The notes under the pieces are model-generated. The model worked only from the letters and a program-made list of their open reading frames with translations. It was not told the DNA's origin and searched no databases. Shown here piece by piece: positions 23,495 through 42,865 of a stretch of 64,000 nt of DNA. Each line of letters starts with the position of its first letter. The first letter of the stretch is position 1. The stretch is from Opitutia bacterium (GTDB taxonomy: Bacteria > Verrucomicrobiota > Verrucomicrobiia > Opitutales > T3Sed10-336), in the NCBI GenBank assembly GCA_050506795.1, contig JBJHCF010000015.1:1-64000 (forward strand), in the 5' to 3' direction. Made by a program: the position numbers and the translations under genes.

Positions 23495-25654
23495 TTATTC
23501 ACTATTGTAGCGACGTTCGTAAAGATCGTAGGCGAGTCGGCGATTGGTGGAGATGAGATCGAAATGGGGGGTATCGGTGATATTCACCAGGCCCCGCGGA
23601 ATGGCTTCGCCGTCGGGTCGGCCGGAGATCGGTTGGTCTCGGAACTGAAAGAAGTGAGCGCCCACGAGCAGGGGGTGACGAAAACCGGCCTCCAGGTAAC
23701 GGGCGAACGAATCGGCCCGTTCGCGGGGATTGGGTGAAATCGGGTCGTCGCCCCGGAAGGGAGTCTGCAAGGGATTTGAACGAATGCCCCATTCTCCCGA
23801 GATGATAGGCAAGTCGAGATGCAGGTACTGGTTAAGCCGTCCCTGGGGCGGGTTATCGTAGATGTTGTAGCTGACCACATCCGCGTATCGGCCGCAGAGC
23901 TCCACGACGGCCGGATCGATGTGGCCGTGGAAACGGACGCCCAGGTACATGTTGTCGGGAGCCACCCGTTTGACCTCTTCGCGAACGGTGGAGAAATAGT
24001 ACTCGGCGAATTGCATGCCGAAATCTCCGCAGTCTTCGATCACTTGGGGGACCTCCGTGTTCGGCGTCCGACGTGATTCGAGCAGGGCATTCCAGGAGGC
24101 ATATTCCGCTTCCCACGCTTCGTTCAAGGCTTCGATGGAATCGTATTTCTCCCGCAGCAGGTTGAGGAACTCCTGCTTGCTGTACGTCTCGGCGGGAGCT
24201 TCAATCGCGGTGAGACCCACTGACGCCGCGCGTGGTCGCCAGCCCCACCAGAGCTCGTTGTCCACGAAGTATCCGAGATTCCAGGGGTCGCCGGCGGTGG
24301 TTTCGCGCTCGCGCTCCATGGCCCGGCGCAGGTTGCGCCGCCAGTCGGGATGATAGATGTCGCGCATGCGGTAATGCATGGAAGGCCCTCCGGCGTGAAT
24401 GGCGACGGTGTAGGGGGTTCGGCGGAGGAGGTAGACATCCGGCGAGGACCAGTTGGCCATGGTGTTGAAACCCCAGCTTCGCATCCGGTCATGCAGCAGG
24501 CCGGCGGCTTTTCTCTCAGCATCTTCTCCGAACTTGCGGTGAATATTATAGGTTCCGAAGTCGAAGCCGGTCCATTCGCGATTCTCGTAATACATGTAGG
24601 TGGCGCCGCGCCCCTCGCCGTAGAACTGTCCCGCCGGTCCATCCCGGTCGGGCAGGTGCGCGAACCAGTATTCGCGGTCGTTGATGGGGGTGAAATCCCC
24701 GCCGTAACCGACTCCGGTCGGGCCGTGCGACCAAAAAAGGCGGCCTTCCGGATCGACCAGCCACCATTTGCCGTTCACCTTCTCGGTGCGGAAAAAGCCG
24801 GTGGCTTCCAATTGAGGGCCTTCGTTCCAACCGCCGTATTGGTTCCAGGAGCCGGGGCCGGGCCAGTCCGCCATCTCCTGTCGCTCTTCTTCAATTTGTG
24901 CGGCAAAGCCGTCGTCTCCATGGATCTTGCCCGGCCAGTCCGAATGACGATACTGGCCGTACTGATCCACGAAGGGGAAAAACTCCGGCGTCCCCGTGCC
25001 TTCGCCCGAGGGCCAGACCTCGAGCAGATGAACGGCGTCGTCCTGTTCGGGCGCCTCGATCCAAAGCGAGACCGATTCAATTCGGGACGGGTCGATGGTA
25101 TTGTCGCGAACATTGATGTTCCGGTAATACATCATAAACTGACGGAAAGGCTCGTATCCGGGATCCTCCGGGCGGCGATTTAGCCGAAGTTTAAGGGTTT
25201 TGGTTTCCTCCGGCATCAGCAGGATGGCGTTGCGGGTATTGTCCATGAGCTGTTCGGGGTCCGGGTTTGCCGCCCGCGCGTACACGACGATCGGGCGGGC
25301 TCCCGGGTTGTGCAGTTGGAAATTCAACGCTCCGTGCTCGGAAAAGTTCCAGAGGTTGGGGGTCGCGAAGGCGTCGGCTCGGGCTTCCCGCCCGGAACGG
25401 GTGGCTTCGAGACGCAGGTGGTCTTCCGTGGCGGAGAGGCGGGCGCCCTCACCGGCGGCGATGTGCCCATGCCGCAGAACTTCGGCGAAGTCGATGTCGA
25501 TCCGCTGTTCCGACCGGTCTGAGGGGGCGTTGTCGGCGGTCAGCGCCGGGCAGGCGATGGCGGCCGCGGCAACGGCCAGAAGGGCGATCGTTTTGCCGTA
25601 GGCCCGGCCGGAGTTCGAGGATTGTGTGTTTGGCTTGCAGGTGAAAACTGCCAT
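23495..25654 (-). CDS. Secreted GH50 family glycoside hydrolase (beta-agarase-like)
   Basis: Signal peptide; FVDQYGQY...WPGK, GFFRTEKVNGKWWLVDPEG, WGFNTMANWS, GYFVDNEL, IISGEW, VGAHFFQFRDQP. Confidence 0.85.
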   Translation of the reverse strand: MAVFTCKPNTQSSNSGRAYGKTIALLAVAAAAIACPALTADNAPSDRSEQRIDIDFAEVLRHGHIAAGEGARLSATEDHLRLEATRSGREARADAFATPNLWNFSEHGALNFQLHNPGARPIVVYARAANPDPEQLMDNTRNAILLMPEETKTLKLRLNRRPEDPGYEPFRQFMMYYRNINVRDNTIDPSRIESVSLWIEAPEQDDAVHLLEVWPSGEGTGTPEFFPFVDQYGQYRHSDWPGKIHGDDGFAAQIEEERQEMADWPGPGSWNQYGGWNEGPQLEATGFFRTEKVNGKWWLVDPEGRLFWSHGPTGVGYGGDFTPINDREYWFAHLPDRDGPAGQFYGEGRGATYMYYENREWTGFDFGTYNIHRKFGEDAERKAAGLLHDRMRSWGFNTMANWSSPDVYLLRRTPYTVAIHAGGPSMHYRMRDIYHPDWRRNLRRAMERERETTAGDPWNLGYFVDNELWWGWRPRAASVGLTAIEAPAETYSKQEFLNLLREKYDSIEALNEAWEAEYASWNALLESRRTPNTEVPQVIEDCGDFGMQFAEYYFSTVREEVKRVAPDNMYLGVRFHGHIDPAVVELCGRYADVVSYNIYDNPPQGRLNQYLHLDLPIISGEWGIRSNPLQTPFRGDDPISPNPRERADSFARYLEAGFRHPLLVGAHFFQFRDQPISGRPDGEAIPRGLVNITDTPHFDLISTNRRLAYDLYERRYNSE

Positions 25655-25668
25655 AGGGATCCAGGTGT

Positions 25669-26790
25669 TATTAAGCCTTTCAGAATAAGAGGGACATTCT
25701 CATGCTGCGTAAACGGTAGATGGAACACGGAAGAAACTCATTACTAGCTCGGGTGATTTTTGGAGCTTTCTCAGGTGATTGATGGCCATTCGTTTCATCT
25801 TGTCTTTTGTTTCATGACGTACACGCCCGAGCGTATTCTTGAGGTTGTTCCATACCTGCTCGTCAGGATTCAGTTCGGGACTGTAACCGGGAAGAATGAA
25901 CAGCTCCAATCGTCCTTCAAGTGAAGCAACATATTGTTTTACCATCTTCGCCTTGTGACTGGGGTGGCCGTCAACGACAAGAAATACGGGATGATCCACG
26001 CCATGAATCAAGCGCTTGAGAAACTCGATGAATTTCGCCGCTCCGACTTTTCCTTCAACCACCATGAATCGAAGGCTGCCCTGCGAGCTCACGGCCGATA
26101 TCATGTTGAATCCGAAACGCGCCCCGGTACTGGAAACAACAGGCGTCTTTCCTCGCGGCGCCCACGTAGTTCCAGAGTGATGGTCGGAACGTACGCCCGC
26201 CTCGTCGCCGAAGAAAATCTCGGCTCCGCGCCGCTTGGCAAGGCGCTTGATCTTCGGAAACTCGGTGTGAATCCAATGCTCAACCGCTTCGGGGTTTTGC
26301 TGATAAGCACGCCAAAGAGGTCTTTGGGGAGTCAGTCCAAGCTGGGCCAACAATCGCGTGACCGAAGAATAACTGAGTTTCACCCCAAATCGATCTTTGA
26401 TCAGTACAATGATCATAGGAACCGTCCACAATGCGAACTCAAACTTCATTTGGAGGGGATTCTTCATTGTGAGGGTGTTGTAAAGCCAACGAAGGTCCCG
26501 ACCTTTAAGCTTCGGTGGCCGTCCCCCTCTCTTGCGCGCATCCAATGCGTCCCACCCTCCACGTCGATACAAAGCGAGCCAGTCGTAAACGGTCGTTCGA
26601 TTTACCCCGAAGGCAGTGGCAACCTCCGCAGGAGATTGACCACCCTGGACGGCCTTTACAGCACGAACGCGCAGCTGGGTTAATTCATTATGACTCAAGC
26701 AACGAGCATCGGTATCACGCACTTTCTTCATAGTCTTATAAGATTCGGCGTAATCTTGTAGATGTCCCTACTATTTTGCAAGTCTTAATA
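25669..26790 (-). mobile_element. IS630 family insertion sequence with TA target duplication
   Basis: Left end TATTAAGCCTTTCAGAATAAGAGGGACAT (25669-25697) versus reverse complement of right end TATTAAGACTTGCAAAATAGTAGGGACAT (26762-26790): 24/29 match including the flanking TA at each side. Visibly lower GC than the flanks. Confidence 0.92.
25700..26731 (-). CDS. IS630 family transposase (single intact ORF)
   Basis: N-terminal HTH, GGRPPKL, DDE triad in DEAG, VVDGHPSH and YSPELNPDE. Confidence 0.95.
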   Translation of the reverse strand: MKKVRDTDARCLSHNELTQLRVRAVKAVQGGQSPAEVATAFGVNRTTVYDWLALYRRGGWDALDARKRGGRPPKLKGRDLRWLYNTLTMKNPLQMKFEFALWTVPMIIVLIKDRFGVKLSYSSVTRLLAQLGLTPQRPLWRAYQQNPEAVEHWIHTEFPKIKRLAKRRGAEIFFGDEAGVRSDHHSGTTWAPRGKTPVVSSTGARFGFNMISAVSSQGSLRFMVVEGKVGAAKFIEFLKRLIHGVDHPVFLVVDGHPSHKAKMVKQYVASLEGRLELFILPGYSPELNPDEQVWNNLKNTLGRVRHETKDKMKRMAINHLRKLQKSPELVMSFFRVPSTVYAA

Positions 26791-26899: not shown

Positions 26900-27973
26900 T
26901 CATTCGAAATAGCTCAGATCCCAGGCGTCGTGCCACCGGAATGTCGGGTGCTCTTCATTTGCGCCGTCGGGCAGATCAATCGGCAGCCAGACGTGCGGGC
27001 TGGTATTCAGGCGTCCGGGTCGCCAGCGGTTGCCGACGTAGATAAACGCGTCCTCTTTCCCGGCGACTGGAATGACGTAGGTGGACTGTGAGTAAAAGGT
27101 GGTGCCGGCGCCTTCACCCCGGCCGGGGTTGCCAAGATGTTCCCAGGGGCCCCAAATCGAATCGGCCACGTGCAGTTGGGGCGCATTGGGATTCCAACCG
27201 GTGCAGGCGCTGGTGAGCAGGTAGAGCCGGCCGTTGTAGGGGAACAGGGCCGGAGCTTCCCGGTGCCGGCGAAAGAGCAATTCATCGCGTTCGGTCACCC
27301 CGAGATAATCTTCGGTCAGTTGAGCCACCCGCAGGTCGAAATTCACATCCGAAGCGTAAACGAGGTACGCGGTGCCGTCGGGTTTCCGGTACACGGTCAT
27401 ATCGCGCGAGTCGTGACCATTGGGCCGGAAACTGTGATGGTACTGGTAGGGGCCTTCAATGGTGTCGCTCGAAGCCACACCCACCAGTGCCGAGCCGTAT
27501 CCCTCGCCCTTTAATTCCAGGTGGAACCAGAGCACGTACCGCCCGGTTTCCTCATTGTACACCAGTTTGGGGCGTTCCATGATGCAACCTTCCTCCAGGT
27601 CGTGCCCTTCCTCATCAACCGTGGGCAGGATGTTGGCGACGTGTTCCCAGTTGTAGAGATCGTTTGATCTGTAGAGATTGATTCCGATCGACGCCCAGCC
27701 TTCACGCGCTTCCCCGACCCAGTAGTAGGTGCCGTCTTCGTGGTAGAAGCCGCCGCCGTGGGCGTTGATATGGTTTCCCTCGGTATCCGGCCAGAAACCG
27801 CCGGGTTCAATCTGTTCGAGCTGGCCGGCTTTTGCTTTGAGGCGTTCGACGTCCTCGTCGGCGGCGGGCCCGGTGAGGGCGCCCTCATCAGCGAAGGTGT
27901 ATGTCGTCGCTGCCGCTAAGAACAACAGTGAAAGAGTCAGTCGGGCGGGAGTGGGTTTTGGCATGTGTTTCAT
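26900..27973 (-). CDS. Secreted GH43 (subfamily 24-like, exo-beta-1,3-galactanase-like)
   Basis: Signal peptide; INAHGGG...YYWVGE, ERPK, SRDMT, REAPA, SACTGWNPN, SQSTY motifs. Confidence 0.85.
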   Translation of the reverse strand: MKHMPKPTPARLTLSLLFLAAATTYTFADEGALTGPAADEDVERLKAKAGQLEQIEPGGFWPDTEGNHINAHGGGFYHEDGTYYWVGEAREGWASIGINLYRSNDLYNWEHVANILPTVDEEGHDLEEGCIMERPKLVYNEETGRYVLWFHLELKGEGYGSALVGVASSDTIEGPYQYHHSFRPNGHDSRDMTVYRKPDGTAYLVYASDVNFDLRVAQLTEDYLGVTERDELLFRRHREAPALFPYNGRLYLLTSACTGWNPNAPQLHVADSIWGPWEHLGNPGRGEGAGTTFYSQSTYVIPVAGKEDAFIYVGNRWRPGRLNTSPHVWLPIDLPDGANEEHPTFRWHDAWDLSYFE

Positions 27974-31653: not shown

Positions 31654-32679
31654 ATGAGAACCTGGATTCCATCGTTTCTGATCGTTCTGCTATTGTTGAG
31701 CTTCGGGCCCGAATTGCGGGCGCTGGGACTGGTGTGGCCGACGCCCAACCCAGCCTGGCTGGAGGGGCGGGCGCTGGAGGATTTTGTTCAGCCCGCCGCC
31801 TCCGGCAGAACGGAGTCCGCGTTATTCGGCTGTACCCGCACGGACGGCACCCGGTTTCATGAAGCGATCGACTTGAAGCCGATTCAACGGGATCGCCGGG
31901 GTGAGCCGCTGGACGCGATTTTTTCGGTTATGGATGGTCGGGTCCTTTATGCCAACCGCACACCCTGGCACAGTTCCTACGGGAACTACGTGGTTATCGA
32001 ACATACTGAGGTTTCCCCGTCGGTGATTTCCCTTTATGCCCACCTGGCCTCCATCGAGGATGCGGTGGTGGAGGGTCGCCGGGTGGTGTCGGGTCAGAAG
32101 ATCGGGGTTATGGGTCGATCGGCGGGCGGCTATACGATTCCGGTGACCCGGGCCCACCTGCATTTCGAACTCGGACTGTGGTTGAGTGAGACGTTCCAGG
32201 ACTGGTATGATTCCATGAACTACGAAAGTCCCAACCGCCATGGAGTGATGAGCGGACTCAATATGGTCGGCTTTGATCCGCTCGATTTCTACGACCGGTA
32301 CCGTACCGGGGAAGTCCGCGATTTTGCCGATTACCTGCGCCGGGAACCAGTCGCTTTCACCGTTCGGGTCGCCTCGGCACGGGTGCCCGACTTTGTGGCA
32401 CGCTATCCGGTTCTGCTGGAGGGAGACCTTCCCGAATTCGGTGTTTCCGGCTGGGAAATCGATTTTACCTGGTACGGGCTTCCCAAAATGTGGCGACCTT
32501 TGACCGAAACGATTGATTCTTCCGGCGGGAGGTTTCCGGTGGACGTTGTTTCCTTCGATGCGGATCTTCTGGCCGCCAACACCTGCCGCCCCACGGTGGG
32601 GTTGACGGCCGCCGGAACGCCTCGAATCGGTGCTCACACCGAGCGGGTGTTACGCATCCTGTTCGCGCTTTACGATTAG
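31654..32679 (+). CDS. M23 family metallopeptidase
   Basis: Signal peptide; HEAID, YGNYVVIEH, SLYAHL, HLHFE. Confidence 0.9.
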   Translation: MRTWIPSFLIVLLLLSFGPELRALGLVWPTPNPAWLEGRALEDFVQPAASGRTESALFGCTRTDGTRFHEAIDLKPIQRDRRGEPLDAIFSVMDGRVLYANRTPWHSSYGNYVVIEHTEVSPSVISLYAHLASIEDAVVEGRRVVSGQKIGVMGRSAGGYTIPVTRAHLHFELGLWLSETFQDWYDSMNYESPNRHGVMSGLNMVGFDPLDFYDRYRTGEVRDFADYLRREPVAFTVRVASARVPDFVARYPVLLEGDLPEFGVSGWEIDFTWYGLPKMWRPLTETIDSSGGRFPVDVVSFDADLLAANTCRPTVGLTAAGTPRIGAHTERVLRILFALYD

Positions 32680-32698
32680 AGCGCGCCGTTGGCGGAGG

Positions 32699-33115
32699 TC
32701 AGCGGTTATTGTCCCCGGCCATGTCAATCAACTCCTCGATCTTCTGGAGAAGTTCCGCCGGACGAAAGGGTTTGGCTATGAAATCGGTATTGCCCGCCAG
32801 GTCTTCTTCGGTATTGAGCTGGCTGTCGAGGTACCCGGACATATAGAGGACTCCCACGTCGGGGCGCTCCCGGCGGCACTGTTGGGCCAGTTCCTTACCG
32901 TTCATTCGCGGCATGACGATATCGGTGACCACCAGGTCGAGCCGGCTGGCGTTTTCCTTGAAAAAACTGAATGCTTCCTGCCCGTCCGGATAGGAGAATA
33001 CCTCGTAGCCGTCGTTCTTTAGAATCTCCTCGACCATTTCACGCACAATCTCAGCGTCTTCGGCTAAGAGAATGGTTTTATCGCGACTGGCGTGTTTTTT
33101 GGCTGCTGCATTCAT
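32699..33115 (-). CDS. Single-domain response regulator (CheY-like receiver)
   Basis: ILLAED, TDIVMPRMNG, MSGY, FIAKPF. Confidence 0.9.
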   Translation of the reverse strand: MNAAAKKHASRDKTILLAEDAEIVREMVEEILKNDGYEVFSYPDGQEAFSFFKENASRLDLVVTDIVMPRMNGKELAQQCRRERPDVGVLYMSGYLDSQLNTEEDLAGNTDFIAKPFRPAELLQKIEELIDMAGDNNR

Positions 33116-33275
33116 TGGCTCTGTCAGGCAAACCTTGGAGGGAATGAGGAGCGTGACGATGTTAAACTTGGATCAATTAACAAATTAATTACACAATCGC
33201 GGGTCAATTCGATTTGAATTGTTTCTTCAAATCACTTTCGGTGTCCGGTCCTGATGCCGCCCATTGCATCCCGCC

Positions 33276-35243
33276 TCAGCGCGGCGGTCCGTTGCCGGCA
33301 ACGTATTGATCGTGGAGGATCTGTATGCCCAGCAAGTGATTGAGAAGGGCGTCCTTGCGGGTGAGCGAAACGGAATCGGTGTCGGCTTCGTACTCTTTCA
33401 TGAAACTTTCGATTTTCGCGGGATCCAGGAGGCCCGCTTCCTCCACCTTTTCCCGGCAAAGGTAGAGATCGGTGAGTTTGGCCAAAGCCGTTTGCTTCTT
33501 CTTTTCCGTGTGGCCGGGAGGCGCCATAAAGGCGAATTTCTCCCGTTTATAAAGCACCTCTGGGAGGACGCCTTTCATGGCTTCACGCAGAACCCACTTT
33601 TCAATATTGCCTTGGATGCGTAAACCGGGGGGGACCTGCACCGCCGCTTCGGCCACGTGGTGGTCGAGGAAGGCGGGGCGGGATTCCATGGAATTGGCCA
33701 TGTCGACCCGGTCTCCACCCCAGTTGAGGATTTGCCCCTCCAACATCGTTTTGCTCCAGGTGTATTGGGCGATGTCGAGCGGGTGCCTGCCCTCGATCTG
33801 GGAGGGGTTCAGGGTTGCGGCGATGGCGTCGATGGGATCGTAGTCGCCGATCTCCTCCAGCGCTCCGCGGCTCAGCAGGGGACGGGCCAACTCCAGCGTG
33901 GCCATCCAGGGCTGAATCCACGACGGCGTGAAGCCGCAAAGCTCGTCGAACGAGGGGTGGTGGGCCTGGACCTCCGCCAGAATGGCCCCCTTGAAAATCC
34001 GGTTGCTCTTTTCCAGCGCCCGGTGGAAGGACTCCACCACCTCGGGGGGTTCGTCCTTGAGGCCGTGCATGAACATGTCGCGTTTGAACGACGGGTAGCC
34101 TCCGAAAAGTTCGTCGGCCCCTTCTCCGGTCACCACGCTCTTATAACCGGCCTCGCGCACGTGACGGCTCATGCAGAACTTGGCCACCCCCAGAGTATTG
34201 TAGAAGGTCCGTTCCGCGTGGTACATGGTGCGGAGGTAATTGTCGCCGTAAAGATCCTCCGCATTCAGGCGAATGAGGTCCTGCTCGGCGTTCATGCTTT
34301 CCGCCATTTGGGTCGCGATGACGGCCTCATCGTAATCGTCGCTGTCGAAACTGATGGTGAAGGCTTTGACCGGGGCCTGCTGGGCGCCGCTGGCCAGGCC
34401 GAGAATCGAACAGCTGTCGATACCGCCGGAGAGGTAACAACCCACGGGGACATCGGCTTCCAGGCGAAAGGTGACGGATTTGACCAACTCTTCGCGAATG
34501 CGCAGAATGTGTTCTTCCGGCGTAATCGCCGTGTCGCGCTCCTCGGGGAGCGGAAAATTCATATCCCAGTAGCATTGGTCCTCGATTTCCAGGCGTCCGT
34601 TCCGGCGCTGGACAATCAGCATGTGTCCGGGACGCAGGGCCTGGATGCCTTCGAAGGCGCTGGTTCCCGGCACCATGGTGTGCATGAGTTGGTGCAGGGC
34701 GGCTTTGCGGTCGAGTTTGCAGGGAACTTCGGGGTGCGCCAGCAGGGACTTGACCTCGGAGCCGTAGAATAGAGCGCCATCCTGTACGTGATAAAAAAGC
34801 GGCCGTACGCCAAAGCGATCCCGCACGAGAATCATGCGGTCCCGGGCCTGGTCGTAGAGGACGAAGGCGAACTCACCGCGCAGCTTGTGCACGAAGTCCA
34901 ATCCCATGCGCTGGTAATAGTGTATGGCGATCTCGCTGTCCGAGCGGGTGCGGAAACGCGCGCCGTCCGCCATCAGCGAAGCCCGGTGACGCTTGTAGTC
35001 GTAGAACTCCCCGTTGGCCGTGAGTACGATCTCGCCGGAGTGCGAGCACATCGGCTGGCTGCCGGTGTGCAGGTCAATGATGGTGAGCCGGGCGTGGCCC
35101 AGGGCGAGACCGCGTTCGGCGTCGATATGCATGCCGGTGCCGTCGGGACCGCGGTGGTGAATCGATTTCACCATCGCCTGTAATTCCTGCTCCGCCCCGG
35201 CGTCGAGGCCCTTTGCTTTCCAGAATCCGGTTATTCCGCACAT
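33276..35243 (-). CDS. AsnB-family glutamine-dependent amidotransferase (asparagine synthase-like)
   Basis: Start MCGI at 35243 (Ntn catalytic Cys), HRGPDG, HARLTIID, NGEFY, RDRFG, LSGGIDS, GEGADELFGGY, EKWVLRE. Substrate not assignable. Confidence 0.92.
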   Translation of the reverse strand: MCGITGFWKAKGLDAGAEQELQAMVKSIHHRGPDGTGMHIDAERGLALGHARLTIIDLHTGSQPMCSHSGEIVLTANGEFYDYKRHRASLMADGARFRTRSDSEIAIHYYQRMGLDFVHKLRGEFAFVLYDQARDRMILVRDRFGVRPLFYHVQDGALFYGSEVKSLLAHPEVPCKLDRKAALHQLMHTMVPGTSAFEGIQALRPGHMLIVQRRNGRLEIEDQCYWDMNFPLPEERDTAITPEEHILRIREELVKSVTFRLEADVPVGCYLSGGIDSCSILGLASGAQQAPVKAFTISFDSDDYDEAVIATQMAESMNAEQDLIRLNAEDLYGDNYLRTMYHAERTFYNTLGVAKFCMSRHVREAGYKSVVTGEGADELFGGYPSFKRDMFMHGLKDEPPEVVESFHRALEKSNRIFKGAILAEVQAHHPSFDELCGFTPSWIQPWMATLELARPLLSRGALEEIGDYDPIDAIAATLNPSQIEGRHPLDIAQYTWSKTMLEGQILNWGGDRVDMANSMESRPAFLDHHVAEAAVQVPPGLRIQGNIEKWVLREAMKGVLPEVLYKREKFAFMAPPGHTEKKKQTALAKLTDLYLCREKVEEAGLLDPAKIESFMKEYEADTDSVSLTRKDALLNHLLGIQILHDQYVAGNGPPR

Positions 35244-35333
35244 TTGATCAAAATAATTGAGTTCAGTCGCCGGTGCCAAGCTTCCTCTGGAACTCGGGGG
35301 CCGGCGATTTCGGGTGAATTCGGTTGAAACGGA

Positions 35334-36458
35334 TCAGCTCAGCGGAATGCCGTCGGGCAGCCGGTCGAAGCGGTCAAAGACCGCGGTGAGAAGCGCCTGC
35401 CGCACGAACACCGCCCCGTGGGCCTGCGCGAAGTAAAGGTTGTGGTTGGTGTCATCGAGGCTGGTATCCAGCTCGGTGAGACGCGCAAGCGGGTGCATGA
35501 TGACCGCCTCCTTTTTCAGCTGACTTGTCCCGTCAAGTTTGTTTTGGCTGTCCAGGGTGTGATAACTGCCACCGAGGTGGGCGATGGAATTGAGATATAT
35601 CACGTCCAGATCGGAAACCAGTTCGCCGATGGAATTGGACTCGTTGAACTCGATGCCGGCGGCCTCGATATCGTGTCTCAGTTCCGGTCCGAGGGGATCG
35701 GCCATTTCCGAAATGACGCTGATGCGGCGGAAATTCTCCTCGAAAAGAAGCGACATGAGCAGGAAGCTCTTGACCGCGCGCATGCTGCCCGGGGTGCCCA
35801 TGATGCCCAGATGGAGGCCGCCGTTACGTTTTCTTCCCTTGGCGTCGGCCAGTGCCGGGTTCCATTTGAGCAGTGCGTACCAGTCGGCCAGGGCCTGGGT
35901 GGGGTGTTCGCCCGAGCCGTTGCCCGCGTTGATCAGCGGGATACGCAGGTTCTTGCGAATGAGGTCGAGCGAATCGGTTTCGGTGTGACGCATGATCACG
36001 AGGTCGCCGTAGGCATTGAACATCTCGCCGATATCGCCCAGCGATTCGCCTTTCTTGACCCCGGTGATGGCGGCGTCCGGGATACTGATGATCTTTCCGT
36101 CGAGCCGTAGAGTGGCGCTTTCAAAAGAGGTCCGGGTGCGGGTGCTGGCTTCGAAGAAGGCGGTAATCACGATCTTGCCGTCCAGCAAATGGTAGGGCGC
36201 GATCTCCATCACTTCCAACAATGCGGCGAAACGGCACAGTTCAACCACCGTTTTGCGGTCGAAGTCCTTAACCGAAAGAATGGATTTTCCACTGAGATTC
36301 CGCAGGATCTTGAGGTCGATCGGCCGGTCGCCGAGCAGGTGCCTCGGGTCGGGTCTCAGGGTTTGGGAATCGGCGGGCGGTTCCAGTGCTTTGGTGCTTT
36401 GATTGGCCGGAAGGATGGAACCTGTCGCGGCGGATTTTCTGGTGACGTTTTTTTTCAT
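35334..36458 (-). CDS. Aspartate/ornithine carbamoyltransferase-family enzyme with non-canonical acceptor site
   Basis: FFEASTRT, KGESL, MRH, NAGNGSGEHPTQAL, MHPLAR, YFAQA are conserved. The ATCase YMTRxQxER motif is replaced by YLNSIAHL. Confidence 0.88.
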   Translation of the reverse strand: MKKNVTRKSAATGSILPANQSTKALEPPADSQTLRPDPRHLLGDRPIDLKILRNLSGKSILSVKDFDRKTVVELCRFAALLEVMEIAPYHLLDGKIVITAFFEASTRTRTSFESATLRLDGKIISIPDAAITGVKKGESLGDIGEMFNAYGDLVIMRHTETDSLDLIRKNLRIPLINAGNGSGEHPTQALADWYALLKWNPALADAKGRKRNGGLHLGIMGTPGSMRAVKSFLLMSLLFEENFRRISVISEMADPLGPELRHDIEAAGIEFNESNSIGELVSDLDVIYLNSIAHLGGSYHTLDSQNKLDGTSQLKKEAVIMHPLARLTELDTSLDDTNHNLYFAQAHGAVFVRQALLTAVFDRFDRLPDGIPLS

Positions 36459-36541
36459 CAGGATGCTGAAAATAAAATTGGTGCCATGTTAAATGGTGTT
36501 GAAGGTCGATGGTTCCGGATTTCCCTGGCCGGGACGGAGGT

Positions 36542-36667
36542 TTACCAGATCTGTTTGCGCAGATAGTCGACCAGAATCATCAGGAGCAGGATGAGGGCCG
36601 CGAGTCCGGTTAAGACCAGTGATCCGATAATTAAAAGCTGCAGCACGGGAGCGGGATAGTAGATCAT
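36542..36667 (-). CDS. 41-aa single-TM membrane protein (not in ORF track)
   Basis: MIYYPAPVLQLLIIGSLVLTGLAALILLLMILVDYLRKQIW*; its ATG overlaps the symporter stop (ATGA). Confidence 0.75.
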   Translation of the reverse strand: MIYYPAPVLQLLIIGSLVLTGLAALILLLMILVDYLRKQIW

Positions 36668-38133
36668 TGCAGAGTCCCTTTCCTGAGTTCTTCGTTGGAT
36701 TCGTTCAGCCTGGCCCAATCGAAATCATGGGGCCACGTGAGCGTACTGAACAAGGTGATGGTCATGGAAACGGCCGCCCCCACGAGCGCGCCCGAATACC
36801 AGCCGATTCCGAAATAGGCCCAGAGGCCAAGGCCGCTTCCCAGGACCATTGCGGCAATCACGCCCCAGGGATTGGTTTTTCGCCAGAACAGCCCGGCCGC
36901 CACCGGCCAGATCACCGCCCCGACCAGCGGGCCGGCGGCGAAGAGGAGTTGGGCCAGGGTCGCTTCGAAGACTGTGATGTTGAGGATACAGACCAGCCAG
37001 GTGGCGAATCCGAGACCCGCGATTATGACGATGGATGCGGTGCGGAGATGGCGTTCGCCGGGCTGGGATGCGATTCCCTTGCGGTAAATGTCTTCCGTGA
37101 TCAGGTCGGAGGTGGCGGCCAGCAGACTGTCTATGCTGGAGGCCAGAGAGCAGAAGAGGACGATAAAAATAATCACCGCGCCGGCCGCACCGAGCACCTC
37201 GCTGGCCGCCAGGGGGCCGAGCATGTCGGGTCGCGGCAGGTTGATGCCGAGCGAATCGCTGGAGAGCGCGACGAATCCTACCGCGATGGGGATGGGCAGC
37301 CAAAAGAGGCCGCCCAGCAGGTAGGCCTTGAACGCGACCCCCTTTCGCATGGCAAAGGCCCGGCTCCACCAGACGTTGTTATGAAAGATCTCTCCGAAAC
37401 CGAAGAGCATGTTGTTGAAAAAGGCGATGATCGCCGCCGGCAAAAGCACGTAGAGCAGGGCGGGTTGGTCGGCCATGACCGTGGTGTAAGTCGCGTCGAA
37501 ATCGATGCGGTGGTAGATCACCGCGCCCACGATTACCACGCCGACCAGAATGATGATACTTTGAATGAAGTCGGTGCCGATGACCGCATAAAGTCCGCCA
37601 AAGAGGGTGTAGAGCACACAGACCAGCAAGATAACGGTCATGCCGAGCGGAATCGGAATCCCCGCCACGGCATTCATTAGCAAGCCTCCCGCCATGGCCA
37701 TGGTCAACAGCCAGGCGAAACTGTAGAAGAGAGAAATCAAGAGAAAGATCACCCAGGCCAATCGACCGAACCGCAGGCGAATGAAATCGCCGCTGGTTAA
37801 TCCATTGGGCATGATGCGGCGGATACGGCGGGCCATGGGCGCGAAGAGAAACAGACCGAAGCAGGCGGTGGAGTACCCGAGCATGCCCCAGACGCCCAGT
37901 TCCAGTGCGAATTGCGGCGCCAGCATGGTGGTGTTCGAGGTGATCCAGGTCGCCATTGCGGTGGCGGCTCCGAGGGCCAGGCCCACGTTGCGTCCGGCCA
38001 CCATGTAACCGTCCATGTTCTTCGCCTTCCGGCCCCACAGGACGCCCAGGAACACCCAGAGTACGCCCAGTGCGCCCAGCAACACCCAGCCGGTTTGCGT
38101 GGAAAGGACCGCGGTTTCATGGCCGGCGTTCAT
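36664..38133 (-). CDS. Sodium:solute symporter (SSS, DUR3/urea-transporter-like)
   Basis: About 13 TM helices; GYMVAGR, ATWI, YTLFGGLYAVIGTDFIQ, WWSRAFA, LASSIDSLL. Start MNAGHET at 38133 overlaps the upstream stop. Confidence 0.9.
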   Translation of the reverse strand: MNAGHETAVLSTQTGWVLLGALGVLWVFLGVLWGRKAKNMDGYMVAGRNVGLALGAATAMATWITSNTTMLAPQFALELGVWGMLGYSTACFGLFLFAPMARRIRRIMPNGLTSGDFIRLRFGRLAWVIFLLISLFYSFAWLLTMAMAGGLLMNAVAGIPIPLGMTVILLVCVLYTLFGGLYAVIGTDFIQSIIILVGVVIVGAVIYHRIDFDATYTTVMADQPALLYVLLPAAIIAFFNNMLFGFGEIFHNNVWWSRAFAMRKGVAFKAYLLGGLFWLPIPIAVGFVALSSDSLGINLPRPDMLGPLAASEVLGAAGAVIIFIVLFCSLASSIDSLLAATSDLITEDIYRKGIASQPGERHLRTASIVIIAGLGFATWLVCILNITVFEATLAQLLFAAGPLVGAVIWPVAAGLFWRKTNPWGVIAAMVLGSGLGLWAYFGIGWYSGALVGAAVSMTITLFSTLTWPHDFDWARLNESNEELRKGTLQ

Positions 38134-38729
38134 GACGAATTCTCCTCTTCTCGCGCTTCCTCGCGGTCTTTGCGGCTGCCCGCCACCACGAGGACCAGGG
38201 TCGCCAGGACCACGATTCCGCCAATGGCGAACAACAGAATCGCGTCCCGCATTGATTGATACGTTATCCGGACCTGCAGCGGACGACTCCATTCGCCCGG
38301 CGGTCCGTCGTCAACCGCCGCGCGGACGCGGAAGTAAACCTCCCCTTCCGGCAGACCTCCCCGAAACGAAGTCCGATCCTGTCCTTCGTAAAGGGTTCGG
38401 GCCTCGCTGAAATCGGCAGACGCGGATTGTTGGAGCGTAAAGATCCTAATCTGGCCGTCGGGGGTTTCCTCCTCCCCGTCGATAGACCAGGACAGGCTGA
38501 CGTGGGGAACGTTGGTTTCCATGACATCGACCACGGTTCCGTCGACCTCGGCTTCGCCGGGTTCGTCGATCCCAAAAACGGCCCGGGGCCCCTGCGTTTC
38601 GTCCGCCGCGAGGGGAAACCTTGGGATCACGGTCAGGCAAAGGATCAAGGCGCAGGTCGCAAGGCGTTGCGGGAGGGGGCGGGGGTAGGGGCTTCGGCCG
38701 CCCCCGGAAGGCTGCGGACGGTATTCCAC
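38130..38729 (-). CDS. FN3-domain membrane-anchored protein
   Basis: Hydrophobic N-terminal segment, FN3-like core (VSLSW...LQQS...LYEG....GLPEGEVYFRVRA...GEWS), C-terminal TM helix. Start uncertain (GTG 38729 or further upstream to 38822). Confidence 0.7.
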   Translation of the reverse strand: MEYRPQPSGGGRSPYPRPLPQRLATCALILCLTVIPRFPLAADETQGPRAVFGIDEPGEAEVDGTVVDVMETNVPHVSLSWSIDGEEETPDGQIRIFTLQQSASADFSEARTLYEGQDRTSFRGGLPEGEVYFRVRAAVDDGPPGEWSRPLQVRITYQSMRDAILLFAIGGIVVLATLVLVVAGSRKDREEAREEENSS

Positions 38730-39016
38730 TTTGGCGTTGAACGTTGCGTTGGAAAAAAAGATGGACGGGCTCCTTTCAGCGTACGAGAGAACAGGAAACA
38801 GAATTGTGCCGAAAAGTAACACCTTATGCCACGAACCGGAGACCGGTTCAACCGAAAACTGCAGGGAGGCTCCTGCGGGGGGGGTCGTGCGGCGCCGTTG
38901 AGCCGAGGGTATAGGCAGACGAAACGAGCGGACTCAAGGCCGAAGCAAACCGTTGAAATCAAATACGTTCTGTTGCCAGCACGGACGAGGAAGGGGGGCG
39001 GTTTCCGGTGTGAAGT

Positions 39017-40369
39017 TCAGTCCTCCGATCGGACCGGGAGGTCGCCGTCGGCGAATTGATTGATCAGTCGGGTTCCCGGTGAGATTCCCTCCCGGCGCGA
39101 CAGCGGGACGCCGTTTTCGTCGCGTACCAGAACGAATCCGCGCTGGAGAACGGAATCCGGCCCCAGGGTTTGCAGTCGTTTTCCGAGGTGAATCATTTTT
39201 TCGCGCCGGGCGGGAAGTTCGGTGGCCATGAGGCGTTCGAAGCGGGCCCGCAGAGCGGAATAGCTCGCCACCGCCAGATTAAGGCGATGGGAGGGCAACG
39301 ATTGATCGAATCGCGACCGCAGTTCCGCGGTCAGGCTCTTTTTCTCCCAGAGAACCGCTTTGGCGCCCGCATGCAGGCGGTTTGCCAGGTCGTCCAGACG
39401 CAAGTACCCGTTTTCGATCCGGTTTACCGGGGAAACGCTCTGCAGGCGGTGGTGCAGCAGTTTCAATTCGCGTGCGCACGTTTCGAGGCGAAGGTCGACC
39501 TTTTCCCGCAGCCGGTCACGCGCCGCGGCCAGGCGGTCACGGCATTCGATGAAACCGCTGGAAATCACTTCCGCCGCGGCGGAGGGGGTTTCCGCCCGCA
39601 GGTCGGCCGCGAAATCACAAAGAGTGAAGTCGATTTCGTGCCCGACCGCGGAAACCACGGGCAGGGGACAGGCCGCCACCGCGCGAGCCAGGATTTCCTC
39701 GTTGAAGGGCCAAAGGTCCTCCAGGCTACCTCCTCCTCGACCGATCACCAGGGCGTCGAGAAAAGGCAGACTGGCCGCGTATTTCAACATGGAGACCATC
39801 TCGGCGGCCGCTTCCGCCCCCTGGACCCGTACCGGCATCAGGATGAGGCGTCCCCACCATCCGCGCCGTTTCAGGATTCGCAGGAAATCCTGGGCCGCCG
39901 CGCCGGTAGGGGAGGTGATGAATCCGACTGTGGACGGAATCTTGGGGATGGGGCGTTTGTTGGCAGAATCGAAAAGCCCTTCCGCCGCCAGTTTCCTTTT
40001 GAGGCGCTCGAATTCCATCTGCAAGCGCCCCTGACCGTCCTCCTGCAATTGCCGGACGATGAGTTGGTAGGCGCCCCGCGGTTCGTACACGTTCACCGCT
40101 CCCTGTGCCAGAACCTGTATTCCGTCGCGCAGCGTCGCCCCGGTTCGGGCCGCGTCGCCCCGAAATAAAACGCAGGGAAGCTGACTGCCCGCGTCCTTGA
40201 GCGAGAAATAGCAGTGCCCGCTGCTTTGCCGTCGAAAATTCGAAATCTCCCCCCGCACCCACACCTCCGGCAAGGACGTTTCCAGGAGCGCCTTGATGCG
40301 CCGGGTAAACTCCGTAATGGTCAGCGGGCGATCCGTGGTGTCGGTTGGCAGGTAAAAGTCGGTAGGCAT
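39017..40369 (-). CDS. xseA: Exodeoxyribonuclease VII large subunit
   Basis: VWVRGEISNF, SGHCYFSLKD, ITSPTGAA, VQG, RGGGSLEDLWPFNEE, SAVGHEIDFT, ETPSAAAE. Confidence 0.95.
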   Translation of the reverse strand: MPTDFYLPTDTTDRPLTITEFTRRIKALLETSLPEVWVRGEISNFRRQSSGHCYFSLKDAGSQLPCVLFRGDAARTGATLRDGIQVLAQGAVNVYEPRGAYQLIVRQLQEDGQGRLQMEFERLKRKLAAEGLFDSANKRPIPKIPSTVGFITSPTGAAAQDFLRILKRRGWWGRLILMPVRVQGAEAAAEMVSMLKYAASLPFLDALVIGRGGGSLEDLWPFNEEILARAVAACPLPVVSAVGHEIDFTLCDFAADLRAETPSAAAEVISSGFIECRDRLAAARDRLREKVDLRLETCARELKLLHHRLQSVSPVNRIENGYLRLDDLANRLHAGAKAVLWEKKSLTAELRSRFDQSLPSHRLNLAVASYSALRARFERLMATELPARREKMIHLGKRLQTLGPDSVLQRGFVLVRDENGVPLSRREGISPGTRLINQFADGDLPVRSED

Positions 40370-40378
40370 GGGGGGCGA

Positions 40379-40588
40379 TTCTTTGTTCTTTGTTCCTGGT
40401 GCTTTGTTCCTGGTTCTTGGTTCCTGGTTTTTTGCTTGGGAGAGTGGAGCGAGTTTTGAGGGGTGGGTTTCTGATCGTCAATGGCCTGTTTGCGATTGTT
40501 CACATCATTAACCATCGGTACAACCAACAACAAAGAACCAAGAAACAAGAACCAGGAACCATGGAACCGAGAACCAGGAACAAGGGAA
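40379..40588. repeat. Inverted pair of degenerate heptamer tandem arrays
   Basis: Eight TTCYTKG-like units at 40379-40434, and about nine complementary CMARGAA-like units at 40524-40588, around a roughly 90-nt core. Confidence 0.85.
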
Positions 40589-40876
40589 GCCGGCAATCGG
40601 GTAAACCGAAGACTAGTTTTGGGCAAAATTCGCCGAGACGGTTCCGCGGCTCTCCAGTATTCAGAATGAGATGGGGATAACCAGTCGCTGGGAAAAAATA
40701 TGGACCGAGGCAAGCCGGCGTGTTAGCGTCCGGACTCGTTTCGCATTGACTGGGCGTGTTTTCGGAGAATGACCGACAGTTCCGAAGCCCGCGGCCCTTC
40801 ACGGGCCCCCATGATTGCCGGCCTTCCGCCTCATGGCGAATGACTTTTGATCCATAATCACACGAGGACATCAAAT

Positions 40877-42865
<1,989 letters not shown>

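Follow-up and report, generated by a model that had tools for sequence, protein, structure and literature searches.

The 64,000-nucleotide stretch of Opitutia bacterium DNA analyzed here (the window) encodes, at 35334..36458 on the minus strand, a 374-amino-acid pseudo-ATCase carbamoyltransferase, and its motifs, alignments, HMM scores, structural model and tree place it in a published, unassayed marine pseudo-ATCase family. Judged from these data it is a paralogue of aspartate carbamoyltransferase (ATCase) and not the pyrimidine enzyme, and the inference that it acts on the alpha-amino group of an amino acid other than aspartate is well supported. What points to a substrate is its operon, which the preliminary description of this DNA had missed. 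We lean toward a reading in which the transferase would catalyze the carbamoylating step of a module that makes, imports and recycles an N-carbamoyl amino-acid amide with an osmotic role.

The roles of the active-site residues of E. coli ATCase are well established, with Arg167 binding the alpha-carboxylate of aspartate and Arg229 and Gln231 binding its beta-carboxylate. Aligned with the annotated E. coli PyrB record, the window protein had identical residues at S52-T55, K84, R105, H134, Q137, P266, L267 and R167, and it carried the motifs STRT (residues 105-108), MRH (with R157), HPTQ (185-188), HPLA (322-325) and GTPGSMRAVKS (with R227). The K84 loop was registered by hand, with S80 aligned to T132; MAFFT puts the gap elsewhere in this region. 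At the beta-carboxylate site, R229 was replaced by S291 and Q231 by A293, alongside T228 by N290 and P268 by A325. The surrounding segment reads YLNSIAHLG (288-296) in place of YMTRVQKER, and an alignment gap makes the 240s loop about 4 residues shorter than in E. coli PyrB. HMMER alignments to solved ATCases concur on the loss of R229 and Q231.

The preliminary description had proposed, from this single sequence, intact carbamoyl-phosphate ligands, a retained Arg in the first of these loops and loss of the aspartate beta-carboxylate motif in the second, a pattern that we found throughout the family. R107, K136, R157, H185, Q188, R227, N290 and S291 were invariant in 121/121 sequences (the window protein and 120 homologues), and position 293 was Ala in 115 and Thr in six of the same sequences. 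Among all 147 distinct locus sequences, which fall in two clades, position 291 was Ser or Ala and position 293 Ala, Val, Thr or Ser, and an equivalent of Arg229 or Gln231 was found in 0/147. The sole candidate we noticed for a basic residue that may compensate for the loss of Arg229 is K230 (E. coli H170), a position occupied by Lys in 68, Asn in 11 and Arg in one of 80 sequences in one clade and by Arg in 66/67 in the other. The invariant catalytic set rules out a decaying pseudogene. A Pfam scan matched both OTCace domains, and an ornithine transcarbamylase (OTC) paralogue is ruled out by the absence of both DxxxSMG and HCLP from the protein, as first noticed in the preliminary description, together with a TIGR00658 score of 64, below 281; the genome encodes its OTC elsewhere, on contig C42. 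An AlphaFold model of the transferase (pLDDT 95.5, pTM 0.94) found its best matches in solved ATCases, at a TM-score of about 0.8.

Although ATCase models rank first among NCBIfam profiles, the protein scores below their cut-offs (TIGR00670, 172 vs 237; NF002032, 166 vs 263). A separate pyrB lies elsewhere in the genome (C7:106318-107283), directly followed by an amidohydrolase gene that we read as pyrC; it has a RIQ motif, and Barba et al. 2013 (PMC4016543) give RxQ as the ATCase marker in their Table 1. All five named carriers that we tested likewise had both an above-cut-off PyrB and a below-cut-off paralogue. The window protein resembles PyrB (EC 2.1.3.2) in fold, carbamoyl-phosphate site, Lys84 and Arg167, at about 30% identity, but differs from it in lacking R229-x-Q231, in having HPLA for HPLP, a shorter 240s loop and an N-terminal extension of about 50 residues, and in its operon. 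A midpoint-rooted FastTree phylogeny of 68 rows, built without bootstrap, split the family (37 rows) from 25 ATCases at a branch support of 100, and within the family resolved an 11-row clade with the window protein and a 9-row proteobacterial clade.

On the window protein's side of this tree were a Kangiella shandongensis protein and three Planctomycete proteins, and the Kangiella koreensis protein C7R705 is 44% identical to the window protein (E 3e-92) and carries AIA and HPLA motifs. Barba, Dutoit, Legrain and Labedan described in 2013 a marine pseudo-ATCase group with HPLA and AIA/AIS/SIA motifs in a symporter context, named K. koreensis in its group 3, and listed the pseudo-ATCase gene RB13301 of Rhodopirellula baltica (PMC4016543). 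The window protein has the STRT, HPTQ, HPLA and AIA/AIS/SIA motifs of that subgroup, and its gene has a Na+ symporter on one side and an asparagine-related gene on the other (the carbamoylase being unlinked here); its genome also encodes a genuine ATCase. The preliminary description had inferred a new transcarbamylase class acting on an amino acid other than aspartate: the sub-cut-off scores, the separate pyrB and the five carriers argue for the non-aspartate part, whereas the novelty of the class gives way to membership, by sequence, in this published group. The assay in the accessible text of Barba et al. is for the Rubrobacter subgroup only, with no activity given there for the marine subgroup (PMC4016543). 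In Table 1 of that paper the motifs of pseudo-ATCase 1 and 3 appear interchanged relative to the text and the Figure 5 legend, since the HPLA row is labelled 'pseudo-ATCase 1' yet K. koreensis of group 3 has HPLA and AIA.

The tree and searches also contained more divergent proteins. Inside the family branch (support 100) lay a clade of proteins of about 355 residues (P0139, P0141, P0146, P0153, P0156-P0159, P0178, P0182, P0183 and P0233) in which STRT, KGE and HPTQ/HPLA are lost or degraded and the R167 equivalent is kept; these are apparently catalytically dead transcarbamylase homologues, and no second copy was present in the retrieved loci. The family members P0123 (from Actinophytocola), P0124, P0125, P0127 and P0130 have 229-231 motifs of ALV, VIA, SLT or SLI and may act on a different acceptor. 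Outside this protein family, P0163, P0211, P0214, P0256 and P0229 are ATCase-like, lack RxQ and possibly represent other pseudo-ATCase subgroups.

The transferase is the fourth gene of a minus-strand operon that encodes a membrane protein (38130..38822), a DUR3-like Na+ symporter (36664..38133), a 41-amino-acid hydrophobic peptide (36542..36667), the transferase and an AsnB-like amidotransferase (33276..35243). We compared this order in two sets of loci, the best 80 of 251 from named genomes and the best 80 of 271 from metagenomes, the latter belonging to the proteobacterial clade and including many near-duplicates. The amidotransferase adjoins the transferase in 79/80 and 77/80 loci and the symporter is present in 78/80 and 72/80, respectively; the three neighbors missing from the first set (one amidotransferase, two symporters) correspond to contig ends. 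Rfam had no match in 32000-41000, and promoter and terminator counts were no better than chance. Elsewhere in the window, a 343-amino-acid minus-strand ORF (25700-26731) lies between ORFs at 23495-25654 and 26900-27973; it resembles an IS630-type transposase, and its neighbors are glycoside-hydrolase-like.

The gene is patchily distributed, being present in 18/301 genomes of the order and in 9/9 of the window's own family. Among 150 genomes of the phylum there were no other carriers (best other E 4e-40), and a phylum-level search of 300 genomes around a locus labelled Blastochloridaceae gave three further carriers, whose contig coordinates coincide with those of three carriers from the window's own order. 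The 29 plasmid records were all true ATCases, with identities no higher than 34%, and among viral loci the best 80 reached 29-40%, which is the ATCase level. Two E-value-limited searches returned 1701 and 2371 proteins, sets that may overlap and may include true ATCases; family members are mostly named aspartate carbamoyltransferase in databases. The one scan of named genomes yielded close relatives only, and the name Ectothiorhodospira was absent among the matches and clusters listed.

The amidotransferase is a class-II glutamine amidotransferase and AsnB-like ATP-dependent amide synthetase (PF00733 plus GATase) that starts MCG with its catalytic Cys intact, and Cys2, SGGIDS and TGEGxDE are near-invariant across the loci. 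It exceeds the cut-off of the broad asparagine synthase model TIGR01536 and falls below those of AsnB (NF006949, 267 vs 499) and of the NAGGN enzyme AsnO (TIGR03104, 280 vs 570), and its best PDB match is a hydroxyamidotransferase, ahead of AsnB. It retains the catalytic residues common to AsnB and so may carry out aspartate/asparagine chemistry. Two tandem, overlapping AsnB-like genes on another contig (C12:61327-65186), unrelated to the operon, start MSG and lack the glutaminase cysteine.

The symporter (PF00474), whose start we place at the ATG that overlaps the upstream stop codon, has DUR3 as its best PDB match (E 2e-33), 22 orders of magnitude ahead of the next (6e-11). In DUR3, Y117, W93 and T98 rank highest for urea binding (PMC11840088). 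HMMER alignments, numbered by hand, showed that the symporter keeps W93, T98, Y117 and W338, near-invariant in the family, and has Thr for W95, Gly for Q124 and Gly or Ser for N305. Both residues of the DUR3 proton pair are lost (Asn for D312, Leu for E402), and the replacement of W95 leaves the W95/W338 dyad incomplete. The retention of urea-binding residues, with smaller residues around them and the proton pair lost, suggests that the protein is probably a Na+-coupled importer of a larger N-substituted urea. No urease was found in any of the five carriers tested and no urea carboxylase in four of the five (controls positive), and plain urea uptake is ruled out by the lack of urease.

Two small membrane proteins accompany the symporter. 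The product of the first gene is bitopic, with a C-terminal membrane helix and a suggested Ig/Fn3-like domain; it had no Pfam or NCBIfam match, and in the Atlas its best matches were unnamed clusters, with Ig-like families appearing only at about 0.8, which we treat as a lead. Its true start probably lies downstream of the listed GTG, and a homologue is encoded upstream of the symporter in 58/80 loci of the first set. The 41-amino-acid peptide, whose start codon overlaps the symporter stop, is a probable accessory subunit of the symporter: a short hydrophobic ORF occupies this position in 134/145 loci in which the transferase follows the symporter, and those hydrophobic sequences that were displayed end in ...W.

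Two hydrolases also track the cluster. Across 301 genomes of the order, an M20 L-carbamoylase (TIGR01879) was encoded in 17/18 transferase-positive vs 18/283 transferase-negative genomes; these counts include kin, nine of the 18 carriers being from one family, and the gene was present in 8/9 carriers outside the window's own family. It lies inside 39/80 loci of the first set and 42/80 of the second. Its best specific equivalog is ErtE, an N-carbamyl-L-glutamate amidohydrolase (395 vs a cut-off of 520), and it retains a DxR segment, which presumably supplies a carboxylate-binding Arg. In this genome the carbamoylase (C16:26758-28047) is unlinked to the operon and is orthologous to the cluster-adjacent copies: it grouped with them in a quickly built 77-row tree, which took in 13/18 non-carrier genomes and 11/41 proteobacterial loci and placed 11/13 non-carrier rows beyond a branch of support 99. 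The ORF beside it resembles lipoyl synthase.

The second enzyme is a cysteine hydrolase of the isochorismatase family, with biuret and ureidoacrylate amidohydrolases among its relatives; it was found in 33/80 loci of the first set and 1/80 of the second, always with the carbamoylase; in 14/80 loci of the second set, of cyanobacterial type, DUF1028 stands alongside the carbamoylase. A 55% identical isochorismatase-family copy in this genome (C5:69386-70129) is also unlinked, so that both hydrolases adjoining the operon in relatives are on separate contigs here. Two capping and two hydrolyzing enzymes together suggest that an N-carbamoyl amino-acid amide is synthesized, taken back up and broken down.

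Regulators near the cluster and co-occurring transporters hint at osmotic stress. There is a precedent for SSS importers and MarR repressors encoded next to genes of osmolyte synthesis (PMC13342039). Compared with the plasmid collection, a MarR protein near the cluster matched regulators of Vibrio and Leisingera; of the three matched regions that we inspected, two adjoin ectA or proVWX and one is unannotated. With the ectA-adjacent protein as query, a MarR gene was found in 15/80 loci of the first set, 14 of them within 2 kb upstream of the symporter, and in 17/80 of the second, ten of these several kb off in near-identical contexts. The same query found no EctR-like MarR in the window's genome. 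BCCT osmolyte transporters occurred in 14/18 carriers vs 38/283 other genomes, including 7/9 carriers outside the window's own family, and in another family (f4) the same two of 24 genomes have both BCCT and the transferase. The Na+-NQR marker NqrA showed no association (0/18 carriers vs 13/283 others). A few loci have osmotic-stress genes within a few kb (L152:732-1664, L162:11204-12172 and L163:9-1217), namely sarcosine/dimethylglycine methyltransferase-like genes at two loci, MscS at two and glucosylglycerol-phosphate phosphatase at three, too few and too related to lend support.

The window's genome itself encodes two BCCT transporters and two proteins resembling sarcosine/dimethylglycine methyltransferases, and it probably already makes and imports betaine, which would make a carbamoyl-amide route dispensable as an osmolyte source here. 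The searches run found no EctA or EctC (tblastn with annotated queries), no OtsA or GgpS and no Ngg in it.

We propose that the transferase would move the carbamoyl group of carbamoyl phosphate onto the alpha-amino group of a non-aspartate L-amino acid, most likely glutamine or glutamate, whose alpha-carboxylate would be held by the retained Arg167, Lys84 and Arg105 equivalents in a pocket that no longer favors a beta-carboxylate. Using ATP and glutamine, the AsnB-like neighbor would then amidate the carboxylate. The outcome would be a doubly capped amino acid that carries no charge, most likely the compatible solute N-carbamoyl-L-glutamine 1-amide. The DUR3-like symporter and its two small membrane partners would import or recapture this product, and the cysteine amidohydrolase (DUF1028 in cyanobacterial-type loci) and the M20 L-carbamoylase would remove the two caps. 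In support of this scheme, the carbamoyl-phosphate site and alpha-carboxylate ligands are invariant while the beta-carboxylate ligands are lost from every locus sequence; an amidotransferase with an intact glutaminase Cys adjoins the transferase almost without exception; the carbamoylase co-occurs and a second amidohydrolase is found in the loci; and the symporter is nearest DUR3 and keeps its top urea-binding residues in carriers that lack urease. A doubly capped product is rather probable within this reading and, given such a product, an osmolyte role slightly more so, as argued by the EctR-like MarR genes upstream and by BCCT co-occurrence.

The NAGGN osmolyte system (Ngg, AsnO, peptidase and MarR; PA3458-PA3461; PMC8070244) offers a cluster with the same logic: an N-cap, carboxyl amidation by an asparagine-synthase-like enzyme, a hydrolase and a MarR regulator. 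It differs in using an acetyl group on a dipeptide in place of a carbamoyl group, the window amidotransferase scores below the AsnO cut-off, no Ngg was found in the window's genome, and, unlike in the NAGGN system, a transporter belongs to the operon.

Naming the product draws on the osmolyte reported from Ectothiorhodospira marismortui, the one organism to which N-carbamoyl-L-glutamine 1-amide is ascribed in the accessible text of the sources (PMC1224877, PMC3857566, PMC7824335). We found no paper that assigns genes to this compound, in a search that most subscription journals lay outside. The full proposal that the operon is the pathway for this compound, comprising a glutamine carbamoyltransferase, an alpha-carboxyl amidotransferase, a retuned DUR3-related Na+ importer and two-hydrolase recycling, is tentative, and we hold it with less than even confidence.

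Several observations count against the osmolyte role. R. baltica carries the gene, and its NMR solute pool is given as glutamate, sucrose and MGG, with 'carbamoyl' and 'amide' absent from the accessible text (PMC3694870). RB13301 is absent from the salt-induced gene lists in the available supplement of PMC2754498, where two neighboring hypotheticals, RB13294 and RB13300, not mapped to the operon, are mildly up with salt, among some 700 listed rows. The picocyanobacterial cluster is associated with warm water depleted in N and P (bioRxiv 2022.08.17.504260), an odd niche for a nitrogen-rich osmolyte. To these we add the lack of a Na+-NQR association, the absence of an EctR-like MarR from the window's genome, and the fact that at least one named carrier of the transferase, Chitinophaga japonensis, is a soil isolate.

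These points bear on a reading with the same chemistry and another product or role, in which N-carbamoyl-asparagine, N-carbamoyl-glutamine or another carbamoyl amide would serve as a nitrogen store or exchanged metabolite and not mainly as an osmolyte; in one variant the amidotransferase may act on a side chain, for example converting Asp to Asn before carbamoylation. The N-poor niche of the picocyanobacterial cluster and the silence of the accessible R. baltica text on such a solute (PMC3694870) would suit it. The invariant N290 could bind a side-chain amide, Asn being isosteric with Asp; the amidotransferase exceeds the broad asparagine synthase cut-off; and the DxR segment of the M20 hydrolase, if its Arg binds a carboxylate as we presume, suggests a substrate with a free carboxylate. 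We nevertheless consider this reading unlikely, as the amidotransferase falls below the AsnB equivalog and is nearer a hydroxyamidotransferase, the loss of R229 and Q231 with the shorter loop suggests a larger pocket, and the EctR-like regulators and BCCT co-occurrence indicate osmotic stress.

Improbable, in our assessment, is catabolic phosphorolysis, in which an imported ureido compound would be split by the enzyme running backwards to carbamoyl phosphate and an amino acid, for nitrogen or ATP. A DUR3-like importer at nearly every locus, the linked hydrolases and the N-poor niche fit such a route, and another pseudo-ATCase subgroup, the ureidoglycine carbamoyltransferase, runs in this direction (PMC4016543). 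That enzyme, from Rubrobacter xylanophilus, is likewise an ATCase-like paralogue with an altered acceptor site, but it is catabolic and lies beside allantoinase and carbamate kinase, neither of which recurs at the loci of this family. Carbamate kinase was not found in any of the five carriers tested (controls positive), the tightest partner of the transferase, the amidotransferase, consumes ATP and has its glutaminase site intact, and a separate carbamoylase would make phosphorolysis redundant.

It is very improbable that the enzyme serves as another aspartate transcarbamoylase or in an alternative route to pyrimidines, as Dore et al. suggested for picocyanobacterial pyrB2-asnB-pydC (bioRxiv 2022.08.17.504260): the ATCase fold, the ATCases that are the closest solved relatives and possibly the conserved basic residue K230/R fit such a role, but R229 and Q231 are missing from 147/147 locus sequences, scores fall below ATCase cut-offs, the family branches apart from the 25 ATCases, a true pyrB is present here and in all five carriers, and no dihydroorotase is among the recurring neighbor families.

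The neighbor called a 'putative asparaginase' for the marine subgroup of Barba et al. (PMC4016543) corresponds to the AsnB-like amidotransferase, and the hydrolase of that context is non-adjacent in this genome. The picocyanobacterial pyrB2, asnB and pydC, which are inherited together (bioRxiv 2022.08.17.504260; PMC10119275), are the same three gene types as in the cyanobacterial-type loci of this protein family, where DUF1028 joins them; the identification of pyrB2 with this family comes from gene context and not from sequence. The residue pattern of this family argues against the alternative pyrimidine pathway read from that cluster by Dore et al.

What the copy described here contributes is a verrucomicrobial family with the gene in its core (9/9 genomes), rather than a new system. 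The picocyanobacterial cluster follows ocean niches and has so far been read as pyrimidine metabolism (bioRxiv 2022.08.17.504260). If the proposed chemistry is right, the operon would supply a new transcarbamylase activity and the genes for an osmolyte known since 1991. The producers of a solute described from one organism would then span Verrucomicrobiota, Planctomycetota, Bacteroidota, marine Proteobacteria and picocyanobacteria, and the solute would constitute an unrecognized pool of marine dissolved organic nitrogen, possibly a new currency of dissolved nitrogen.
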